Virus record (IMG/VR): IMGVR_UViG_2698536618_000023
DNA: 17,568 nucleotides
From: a virus
Taxonomy: Duplodnaviria > Heunggongvirae > Uroviricota > Caudoviricetes
Reading direction: 5' to 3' (one strand)
The first letter of the stretch is position 1, and the number at the start of each line of letters is the position of its first letter. Made by a program: the position numbers. This document shows, in pieces, positions 1-3,000 of the stretch.

Positions 1-3000
1 TCATAGATTCACTGTTCGGGCGTACCAGACACTGCTGCGAGAAATCATGGATAACCCTTGAAATTTCGTCAGATTACCGTTAAGTACGGCCTTGTAGATG
101 CGCTCAGGCTTCCTGCCGTCAACACGTTTACCAATCTTTTTAAGGGTCTGCATAGCTTCTCTATAGTCGTCCTTATGACGTTCCAATAGCTCAGCTTCAG
201 CGTGATAGCCAAGTTCGACCATCTTATTAGCAACGACCGTGGCAACTTCAGGCATCTCAAGGATAGCCTCAAAGGCTGCATAGACCATGTCCTCGAAATC
301 TTCAGAGACCCATCCTGCATACTTGAGGGTAGCCTGTTTGTCTGCGTAGGTTATGCTTTCAATACCAATCTTCTCGACGTGCATTTTTTGCATGTCGGTG
401 AGCCTCTTTGTTACCTTGCCGCGCCACTGAGAGGGTAGCTTATTGTTAGGTAATCCGAGGATTTTCCATATTTCTGTAAGATTCCACATGCCAGACTCAT
501 TAGACTTAAAGCTGTGGCCTTCAATAGTGATAATATGACCTGCATGTTTATGTTTATTGTTCATTGCTTGGTTACCTTTTAAATATGCACACTAAACCGC
601 CCCCTACTGGCCCACTCAAAGTCCCCAAGCGAAGGGAGACCAGCAGGACAACAGGATGCAAACAGAATGACTTTGAGATTGAATGAATGATTGTGTCGTA
701 GCTGTGCGGAGCTACTGTATGGTGAAGCGCGAGAGGTGGAACTTTGAGAGACACGTGGTGAGTGGTTCGGAGTGTGTCTCCTATTAGTAAGTCGTATTGA
801 TTTACTACTGGGAGGGTCTCTGAGCCACGCTAGGCATCAGGCCATACGAAACTACATGGCACCTAAAGAATGGCGTACAGGACCATACAGGGCCATACAG
901 TTAGCTTCTGGGTAATGCCTTGAGGAGACCTATAGGTTTGGTGATTGATTATTATGAATATCATCACCTCTTAAGGTATTCCCTTAGAGTCAATCTTTAA
1001 TTGTGTCTTTAAGTAGACTATAAGTTAATACTTAAAGTTACTCTTTAATTGGTCTTTAATTAATCTATAATTTAATACTTTAAGTTAATCTTTAATTAGT
1101 CTTTAATTAATCTATAATTTAATACTTTAAGTTAATCTTTAATTGTGTCTTTAAGTAGATTATAAGTTAATACTTAAAGTTAAGCCCCTGTAGGGGTTAG
1201 AGACCATAATTAATATGATGTCTAAGGCTATTCACGTATCGACTGACCCAGAGCACACAGGAAGCATTCATTTTAAGTAGAACGCTTGGTGTCTGTAATT
1301 GGTCATCCCGCCCCTGAAAGGATGCGATAAGTTACGGTTAGAGTTAAAGCTACCTGAAGTAGTAGCAAGTGTCATCATAGAGAGAGACAGAGAGAGACAG
1401 AGAGAGAAAACTTTTTGTGTCCCTTCTCCCTATAGTGAGTCGTATTAAATATGCTTGACAAGTAGTGAAAACCATGAGTCAAAACATGACCACACAAAGG
1501 GTCACACAGGACCACATAGGACCACAAAGGGGACCATAGGAATAGTAGCAAGTGTCATCGCCTATGGTCATCGCCTATGGTCATCGCCTATGGTCATCGC
1601 CTATGGTCATCCTTAAGGGGCCACAACCTCCTTATAAACATCAGCCATCACATTGACCAGTCTATCAACCTCAACCTCTTTAGCATAACGGTCGTAAGTA
1701 ATAGACCCTGAACTATGCCCCATGATCGCCTGTGCATACGCCAACTCGACCCCATGTTGTTTTAACTGGGTCGCAACTGTATGTCTAAACGAGTGAAACG
1801 CTAAGCCGCTACGGTCTGCGAGGACTTTAGGCAACAACGTCCGATTAAACCATTTACTCACCTGCTCACCGTAACCGTTCTTCATGAGGCGAAGACCATC
1901 GAACACCATAGCGTCATCACCATCAGCGCCTCTACGGGTCTCAACCAACCTCATAAAGTCAGCCAATATAAAACCATAGGCCCCATCGACCAGAGGCACA
2001 CAGCGGTCACTATGAGCGTTCTTGATGCTCTTACCGGGTAGACTACTATCGTCTTCATTGATATGAATATAAACGGTTCCCGCCTCAGTGGTCCTGACGT
2101 CTTTGACCTGTAGTTGGGCTATTTCATTGAGTCTCGCCCCAGTGATAGCAGCCAAGGCGGTAACATAATAATGATACGGCTTACCAGAAGGTCTCTGTGA
2201 GTAAACTTGGGCGGCAGCCAGTAGTTGTCCTACCTGCTCCGTAGAGAAAGCATTACGCGCCTCAGAGGCTTTACGCTGGGGAACCTTAAGCTCTAGCCCT
2301 TCTGTCATATTCTTTTTAATCAGGTCATTACGCACGGCCCACTTGAAAACAGCCGCCATCTTAATGAGATATTTATTATTGATGGTAACAATATCCAGAC
2401 AATCGGTTTTATCCTCACGACCTAGCAGGTCAACCAACGGAACATCTTTGAAACGCTGCTTACGATTCTTCGGCAATTGCTGGAGGATATCCCGAACCCT
2501 AAGCATATCCGCACGAGCTAACACATTGGCGTCAGCATTGAGGCCCAGATAATCAAAAACTTCGATTAACGCAGCATGAGAAGCTTTGTTTTCTCGTAAT
2601 GTTGCTGGCTTCCAGTTCTGGGCGTTTTCCTGCTCGTACTGCTCAAAGAGAGAAGCAACGGTTACGCAGTGTTTGCCTTCAGTAATGCTTGTTTTTTGGG
2701 GAGCACTAACAGATAGAGTTGCAGAGGCTTGGCCATTAGCCCCAGCAGCAGCATCAAATCCATCTATATAATCTATAAGTGGCTGGCTATCTCCCGCTTC
2801 AATGCGCTTCATGCAGGCCTTGAGTACATTAAGAGCCTCATTAATATAGCGATGCTGGTCAATAGTCAGTGGCTCGCTTGCCAGAGCATGGACAAGATTC
2901 TCTCCCACTTCCCCATACTGGTCACGGTATAGATCTCTCATATCTGGCTCGAAGAGGTCTGAACGACCTGTAGACAACTCCCACTCTGCGATGTCCCTCA

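Follow-up and report, generated by a model that had tools for sequence, protein, structure and literature searches.

The stretch of DNA analysed here (the window) comprises the 17,568 nucleotides of the IMG/VR virus record IMGVR_UViG_2698536618_000023. Positions 1–3372 of the window are 100% identical to the chromosome of Escherichia coli E110019, and the identity stops at 3372. The E110019 element to which this part belongs is 4,264 bp long, lies between ygeQ and glyU and is bounded by 23-bp direct repeats of the 3' end of tRNA-Gly (glyU). It carries on one strand, in this order, the gene of a 543-aa integrase, a 1-kb non-coding region and two open reading frames (ORFs) of 187 and 157 codons. 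The subject of the present analysis is an AT-rich repeat block situated in the non-coding region, downstream of an exact T7 promoter. Our tentative reading is that this block forms the AT-rich half of a replication origin of the T7 type, primed by a phage RNA polymerase, an interpretation to which we give somewhat short of an even chance. The features on which the argument depends are listed below in the direction of transcription.

1613–3244, minus strand: gene of the 543-aa tyrosine integrase (Pfam Phage_integrase, 2e-18)
1425–1447, minus strand: exact consensus T7 class III promoter TAATACGACTCACTATAGGGAGA, +1 at 1430, 0 mismatches
1343–1424, minus strand: initially transcribed region, with CT-rich 10-bp repeats at 1379–1407 (Tandem Repeats Finder)
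1228–1342, minus strand: most conserved non-coding block (TAACCGTAACTTATCGCATCCTTTCAGGGGCGGGATG...GGTCAGTCGATAAGTGAATAGC), a putative structured RNA (cross-genus conservation)
1185–1196, minus strand: short GC hairpin CCCCTACAGGGG, immediately before the AT-rich block in all block-bearing relatives
983–1184, minus strand: AT-rich block of four direct units of 47, 47, 48 and 47 bp (repeat searches and unit alignment)
940–968, minus strand: hairpin GGTGAT-N17-ATCACC, AT-rich in its loop, immediately following the AT-rich block
777–799, minus strand: degenerate T7-like promoter CAATACGACTTACTAATAGGAGA, 5 mismatches to the T7 consensus
1–564, minus strand: 187-aa ORF, weakly KilA-N-like, the first gene downstream of the promoters (profile matches)

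The array was delineated by Tandem Repeats Finder at 983–1183, with a period of 47, 4.2 copies, 87% matches, a score of 288 and an 11-bp sub-period, and a repeat search of the window placed the unit starts at 983, 1030, 1077 and 1125. G and C account for 38 of the 202 bases of the block (19%; A+T 81%). As determined by gapped alignment, the outer pair of units shares 91% identity and the inner pair 92%, while outer and inner units are 79–88% identical. Together with the repeat searches, these values bear out the AT-rich repeats of about 48 bp in A-B-B-A order that were described in the initial annotation. The range given there, 992–1196, is slightly displaced; the array itself occupies 983–1183, and 1185–1196 is the separate GC hairpin. 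The notion of mirror-ordered variants, on the other hand, has to be abandoned. The A and B units differ modestly and all four are direct, and the A-B-B-A order is read as the duplication of an inner unit, with no mirror symmetry, because relatives have just three, arranged A-B-A. This three-unit order is found in the close relatives L003 and L050 (L001–L093 being the labels of the compared element loci, of which L093 is CP056737.1), and other arrangements of the units are found in L029. In transcript sense, each unit is composed of 11–13-nt sub-units ending in TTAAAG, TTTAAG or TTATAG, and the block carries GACAC, GACCA, GACTA and GACAC; its RNA is unstructured (z = -1.1).

Of 5,426 complete E. 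coli genomes, 58 have the block, each at a single locus, and it consists of 3 or 4 units, three only being covered in 37 of the 58. This distribution disagrees with a family of intergenic repeats widespread in the host genome, the origin that had been set against the first proposal, and dispersed host repeats such as REP and ERIC were rejected on the same grounds.

The T7 promoter reported at 1447–1425 was confirmed, having no mismatches and the same sense as the block, which begins 247 nt downstream of its +1 (1430) in transcript sense. No occurrence of the exact 23-nt sequence is expected by chance (200 shuffles), and the perfect consensus is kept in 30 related element loci, in 1–3 tandem copies, amid varying flanking DNA. 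Of the second promoter claimed beyond the repeats, a same-sense T7-like site is indeed there, but it is degenerate and merely promoter-like in this window. The site at 799–777 deviates from the T7 consensus at positions -17, -7, -2, -1 and +1, has the 14-mer AAATCAATACGACT in common with T7 phi1.1A (T7 5827), and its equivalent in K11-type relatives is a consensus K11 promoter. The scan for sigma-70 promoters and terminators yielded nothing above chance.

A T7 promoter is needed by every T7 origin, including the primary phi1.1A/B and the secondary phiOR and phi6.5 (PMC8373140), and a circular phiOR plasmid replicates in E. coli once the T7 replisome and a fusion of T7 RNA polymerase with lysozyme are supplied (bioRxiv 10.1101/2024.07.25.605042). 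The block was aligned in transcript sense, using the Smith-Waterman algorithm, against the whole genomes of T7, T3 and K11. The best alignment windows, with scores in brackets, were as follows.

T7: windows 5941 (50) and 401 (47), in the primary origin after phi1.1B and after phiOL, respectively; next best 28
T3: windows 381 (37) and 5681 (34), after phiOL and in the annotated rep_origin 5682–5758, respectively; next best 29
K11: windows 5821 (42), 40541 (37), 17821 (32) and 501 (30), after phi1.05, phiOR, phi6.5 and phiOL, respectively; next best 24

The same pattern of matches to phage origins was obtained with the blocks of eight relatives, and the block of L032, which holds TTAAGACCC three times, gave scores of 55 and 49 with the T7 and T3 origins, respectively. 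The AT-rich blocks of distant relatives match origin or terminal regions of the three phages as well, more weakly. As for the controls, dinucleotide shuffling gave 23 ± 3.7, with none of 1000 shuffles reaching 47, the reverse orientation scored 29 (T7), and 68 kb of bacterial DNA with windows of 80–82% A+T gave a maximum of 29. The 12–14-mers that match the phages exactly are located in those origin regions: TTAAGACCCTTAAG (T7 origin, 5944) is present 2–3 times in L032, and AACTTAAAGAATA and TTAACTTAAAGA match K11 5838–5840. The initial annotation had named a lack of similarity to phage origin or terminal regions as the outcome that would count against an origin; instead, the best whole-genome matches are the AT-rich stretches of origins. 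Matches of the remaining non-coding segments, apart from the AT-rich block and its hairpin, to T7, T3 and K11 were at noise level. As far as the comparison of motifs goes, the content of the block tracks T7-group phages and not the ORFs of the element itself, which speaks against the block being bound by a protein of the element; the same KilA-N-like ORF accompanies a very different block in L042 and L049.

The primase pentamers (G/T)2GTC occur three times on the plus (template) strand of the block (GTGTC at 1003 and 1145, TGGTC at 1050) and are missing from its minus strand (P ~0.002). The geometry of these sites is the same as that of GACCC in the T7 origin and of GACAC in the T3 origin. Furthermore, the motif GGTGAT-N14-17-ATCACC is found once in T7 (39329–39354), once in T3 (37538–37563) and once per block-bearing element, and in both phages the hairpin lies ~100 nt after phiOR, just past its AT-rich stretch. 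The nearest known counterparts of the region are the T7 primary origin (phi1.1A/phi1.1B with its AT-rich region), the T3 primary origin after phi1.05 and the secondary origins at phiOR, phiOL and phi6.5. The region shares with these T7-group origins one or more phage-polymerase promoters upstream on the same strand and an AT-rich stretch made of units of the ...TTAAG/TTAAAG type with GAC(C/A)(C/A) on the sense strand, and with phiOR in particular the GGTGAT...ATCACC hairpin that follows the AT-rich stretch. Unlike those origins, it resides in a bacterial integrative element instead of a phage. In addition, the block measures 200 bp in 47-bp repeats, compared with 60–80 bp in the phages, and is separated from the promoter by 247 nt that include a conserved, probably structured block. 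The origin-like architecture that was proposed for the region is hence sustained in part. It agrees with the sequence likeness, with the promoter and with the absence of replication genes of the element's own, profile searches of its ORFs having revealed no replication initiator, primase, regulator, packaging or capsid-redirection gene; it fits less well with the 247-nt spacing, and the mirror order and an intact second promoter can no longer be counted in its favour.

Several observations weigh against an origin. The AT-rich regions of the phages begin ~10–85 nt after the promoter, versus 247 nt here. The similarity to phages consists of short low-complexity motifs, and the blastn search with the non-coding region against 50,697 phage records returned nothing at 1e-5 and the promoters only at E = 10. 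The GGGTC site of the T7 origin is reportedly unused for priming (PMC12839067), and canonical primase pentamers are absent from the relatives L010 and L042. Promoters without an AT-rich block are encountered in the module of L014 and L020, in L015 and in L026. YTAAAG arrays also adjoin the terminal repeats of T7-group phages, and because these terminal-flank arrays are second-rank matches for several relatives, origin-type and terminal-type sequences are not cleanly separable by such comparisons. Finally, no excised, circular or concatemeric copy was detected in IMG/VR, metagenomes or assemblies, where all copies were chromosomal or partial.

Nevertheless, the likeness to phage origins suggests that the element may be copied by the enzymes of an infecting phage. 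According to the mechanism that we propose, a T7-group phage would infect the cell and its RNA polymerase would fire the promoter at 1447–1425. The transcript would then cross the conserved, probably structured 115-nt block and the small hairpin and enter the easily melted block of TTAAAG repeats, where the DNA polymerase and helicase-primase of the phage could take over the RNA, or an R-loop, in the way that they do at T7 phi1.1A/B and phiOR. Amplification of the element would accordingly take place only in the presence of a helper phage, and readthrough from the same promoters would express the KilA-N-like gene and, on an excised circle, the integrase.

The ~115-nt block at 1228–1342 that such a transcript would traverse is also found in L003, L004, L008–L010, L015, L026 and L029–L052. 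Its exact 34-nt word was detected in 3 IMG/VR contigs, in 21 metagenome contigs and in several genera, and is common to genera whose integrases are ~80% identical. Five of the base pairs predicted by RNAalifold differ in a compensatory manner between the T7-type and K11-type lineages, for which reason the segment is probably a structured RNA, presumably transcribed by the phage polymerase; no Rfam match at E <= 1 was found across window positions 1–3500, this segment included. A certain likeness can be drawn to ColE1, the RNA II of which is begun hundreds of nucleotides upstream, folds, hybridises at the origin and becomes the primer, and by analogy a ColE1-like primer maturation could explain the structured 247-nt spacer. 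There is no sequence relationship between the two, however, and ColE1 relies on enzymes of its host, namely RNA polymerase, RNase H and Pol I.

Among the alternatives, a role in packaging fares best, albeit being unlikely in our estimation. The phased 11–13-bp TTAAAG sub-repeats could represent a terminase-binding array of the helper, the counterpart of the terminal CCTAAAG arrays of T7-group phages, and the whole promoter-repeats-promoter region could mimic a concatemer junction, by means of which concatemers of the element would enter phage heads. Indeed, two same-sense promoters ~650 nt apart enclose short tandem arrays in the same manner as phiOR and phiOL enclose the T7 junction, and the YTAAAG units are phased at about one helical turn. 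T7 241–261, the array to the right of the terminal repeat, is the second- to fourth-rank match for several relatives, and the block of L023 matches the T3 terminal repeat with a score of 40. The segment 1343–1424, with the CT-rich stretch after the first promoter, has its best match in both T7 and K11 in window 141, at the right end of the terminal repeat, with a score of just 27; the hairpin beyond the block has its counterpart in the one near phiOR in T7 and T3. Opposed to this, the motif TGTGTCCCTATCTGTT of the T7, T3 and K11 junctions, with its ATCTGTT pause signal, is absent, a CT-rich match at 17 of 21 positions and a TCTGTT at 666 being all that is present, and comparison with the three phages revealed no homologue of a terminal repeat. 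Moreover, the block is far more AT-rich than the CCTAAAG arrays and scores 47–55 on the AT-rich regions of origins versus 25–36 on terminal arrays, and the virome and metagenome data yielded no concatemeric contigs.

It is also conceivable, if improbable, that the block, being AT-rich, phased and probably curved, has no part in replication and instead is bound by a nucleoid protein (H-NS, Fis or IHF) or, in uninfected cells, shields the cargo from transcription running on out of the integrase gene. The phage promoters would then have the sole task of activating the KilA-N-like gene and other cargo for defence. A G+C content of 19% and a phasing of 11–12 bp are typical of nucleoid-protein targets, certain members of the family have promoters and lack the AT-rich block, and many carry the proven anti-T7 abortive-infection gene PD-T7-4/RAZR (PMC13017515). 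AT-richness by itself, however, fails to produce the strand-specific match to origins, given that bacterial windows of 80% A+T did not exceed 29, and the motif content follows T7-group sequences across genera and not the proteins of the element. A pure defence cassette would, besides, leave the integrase, the attachment (att) repeats and the 1-kb cis region conserved in 20 species unexplained. Both the packaging and the regulatory explanations are compatible with an origin.

A neutral, slippage-prone AT-rich spacer or leader, the T7 flavour of which would stem from descent from, or recombination with, a T7-like intergenic region, is given a small chance. Close relatives differ in having 3 or 4 units or other arrangements, and several other arrays of the non-coding region vary as well; yet the YTAAAG block is held between the GC hairpin and the AT-loop hairpin despite integrase identities of 64–85% and switched promoters. 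Lastly, a type III antitoxin RNA for a ToxN-like toxin, or iterons for a Rep of the element, are close to rejected, for the superficial resemblance of 36–48-nt tandem repeats upstream of small ORFs to ToxI arrays is outweighed by the lack of a match of either ORF to ToxN/AbiQ or Rep families, by units that are just 79–92% alike and degenerate in relatives, by the unstructured repeat RNA, and by the promoter and 420 nt lying between array and ORF.

Returning to the block as a candidate origin, its setting proved to be widespread. Besides E110019, E. coli AW1.7 is a natural carrier of the element. Relatives of the non-coding region are present in 351 of the 5,426 complete E. coli genomes, always on the chromosome, and relatives of the integrase (64–85% identity) occur in 20 species of Enterobacterales, including members of Klebsiella, Citrobacter, Pectobacterium, Proteus, Morganella and Serratia. 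In most of these 20 species, a unit of 4.1–6.5 kb lies between copies of the tRNA-Gly core, and in 19 of 20 loci sites resembling T7-family promoters follow the integrase at a distance of a few hundred bp and on its strand. The promoter specificities vary, comprising T7-type sites, K11-type sites (AATTAGGGCACACTATAGGGAGA, often beside a T7-type one), pairs of T3-like and K1F-like sites, the AACCCACACTATAGGGAGA type in Proteus and Kluyvera, and three different types in Citrobacter braakii. A recurrent order of promoter or promoters, conserved block, AT-rich YTAAAG or TTAAGGAC repeats, AT-loop hairpin and second promoter is observed in Lonsdalea, Pectobacterium, Kluyvera, Proteus, Rouxiella and Klebsiella, while the sequences and the promoter specificities differ.

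The promoter regions of the relatives show some further peculiarities. Two or three specificities are often adjacent (L004, L009, L014, L016–L020, L022–L025), as if tuned to several helpers. In L029 (570–900) and L030 (5530–5860), there are three tandem copies of a 120-bp segment that includes the T7 promoter, reminiscent of the tandem promoters phi1.1A/phi1.1B at the head of the T7 primary origin. An alternative, GC-richer module of ~530 nt (L014 8290–8820, L020 8290–8850; also L017, L018 and L022), bracketed by pairs of T3-like and K1F-like promoters, replaces the module with the AT-rich block. No likeness of this alternative module to the origins of T7, T3 or K11 was found, and the Rfam search with that of L014 returned only a sub-threshold GA-cis match at the promoter end (8228–8293; 21.9 bits against a gathering threshold of 34.7, E 0.073).

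In K11-type and many other members, a DUF4145 gene identified as PD-T7-4/RAZR (PADLOC 8e-99) is located between the integrase and the promoters (L004 7060–7692, L009 7602–8240), adjoining the former in the K11-type relatives, whereas the copy of the element in the window has lost it. The portal proteins of T7 and T3 trigger RAZR, an RNase that acts by abortive infection (PMC13017515), and the integrase gene is frequently overlapped by PD-T7-4 according to the paper that reported its discovery.

These data may be accommodated by regarding the tRNA-Gly elements (4–6.5 kb) as an undescribed family of minimal satellites of virulent T7-group phages, furnished with helper-polymerase promoters, a T7-type origin and packaging as concatemers, many of them with RAZR/PD-T7-4, although we consider this wider proposal rather doubtful. 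Such satellites would sense infection through promoters for the single-subunit RNA polymerase of the helper, and would switch promoter type to match the local phages. As in the phage satellites known to date (P4-like, PICI, PLE and PICMI), an integrase and att repeats bound a discrete element, and the resemblance is closest to PICMI of Vibrionaceae and PLE of Vibrio cholerae, which are likewise small integrative elements without capsid genes, the response to phage being in the present case deduced from the promoters. PICMI is packaged as a concatemer (PMC10803314). PICMI and PLE, however, possess activators of their own (AlpA), a primase or replication initiators and other integration sites, all of which the present family lacks, having instead promoters for the helper RNA polymerase and a phage-type origin-like sequence. 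A search of IMG/VR with the hairpin of the element for a cognate helper returned unrelated matches, which were not inspected individually, and the plasmid search with the non-coding region gave one irrelevant match.

We know of no satellite or hitch-hiker of T7, one of the best-studied phages. Our full-text literature search, which did not extend to subscription journals, retrieved neither enterobacterial islands with T7-group promoters nor a T7-like satellite, and neither phage promoters nor an AT-rich block are mentioned in the consulted papers on RAZR. The block may be a module resembling a T7-type origin within a bacterial integrative element, a setting for which no published description was found, and the element as a whole may represent a novel family of minimal satellites. 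Should a T7-type origin indeed serve to copy the element, we would be dealing with a phage parasite of the smallest kind, made up of cis signals and an integrase and borrowing the transcription, the replication and perhaps the packaging of its helper, and a natural genomic context would be provided for the defence gene RAZR/PD-T7-4. This would also bear on phage therapy and T7 biotechnology, since wild E. coli and Klebsiella may then carry DNA that is amplified, and possibly spread, by T7-like phages, and natural compact modules of origin and promoter would become available for orthogonal T7-replisome systems.

The remaining features of the element are the following.

3373–3390, no strand assigned: degenerate tRNA-Gly att core with 6 mismatches, at the right end of the element and at its junction with a second island
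1554–1611, minus strand: 13-bp repeats ATGACCATAGGCG x4.5 in transcript sense (Tandem Repeats Finder)
876–900, minus strand: 10-bp repeats CTGTATGGNC in transcript sense, differing in copy number among relatives
586–690, minus strand: conserved leader containing a long inverted repeat (CTCAAAGTC...GACTTTGAG), ahead of the first ORF (alignment with relatives)

As judged from the comparison with L003 and L050 and with the intact gene in L049, the repeats at 1554–1611 are probably the expanded remnant of the 3' end of the deleted RAZR/PD-T7-4 gene. Copies of the leader hairpin (586–673) with ~83% identity are scattered over unannotated sites of many E. coli genomes (O157, O26, O111 and others), where they may lead related cargo genes in other islands. 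The product of the 187-aa ORF matches Pfam KilA-N with 19.4 bits, which is under the cut-off, and PHROG 129 ('transcriptional regulator') with 8e-10; no family matches were obtained for the 157-aa ORF, and neither of the two small proteins has a relative in the PDB. Just inside both ends of the element there are paired GTTACAG(T) repeats (window 3287–3306; L001 18636–18660), likely arm-type sites of the integrase. An att-arm reading was considered for the repeat block too, and was rejected.

Beyond the element, positions 3373–17568 of the window constitute a different, P4-like island, the two being arranged in tandem at one tRNA-Gly att site. The element is found in at least two chromosomal contexts, namely beside glyU and, in L093, beside a second integrase. 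In the latter locus it lies between the second integrase gene and genes for FidL-like, Trans_reg_C regulator, EAL and autotransporter proteins (unrelated to ETT2), and is still flanked by att cores; this is not the ygeQ-glyU setting and fits a tandem insertion or a rearrangement at the site. The P4-like island of the window is 98.5% identical to islands of bovine E. coli strains and codes for a Q antiterminator, a YeeE/YedE transporter, ProQ/FinO, SSB, a D5-type primase-helicase, AntA/Ash, Rha and a P4-type integrase. It contains short tandem arrays of its own at 9617–9774, 6348–6485 and 3933–3989, the first of which is situated just past the 3' end of the D5-type primase gene (9786–11609, minus strand) and could be the origin or iterons of that island.

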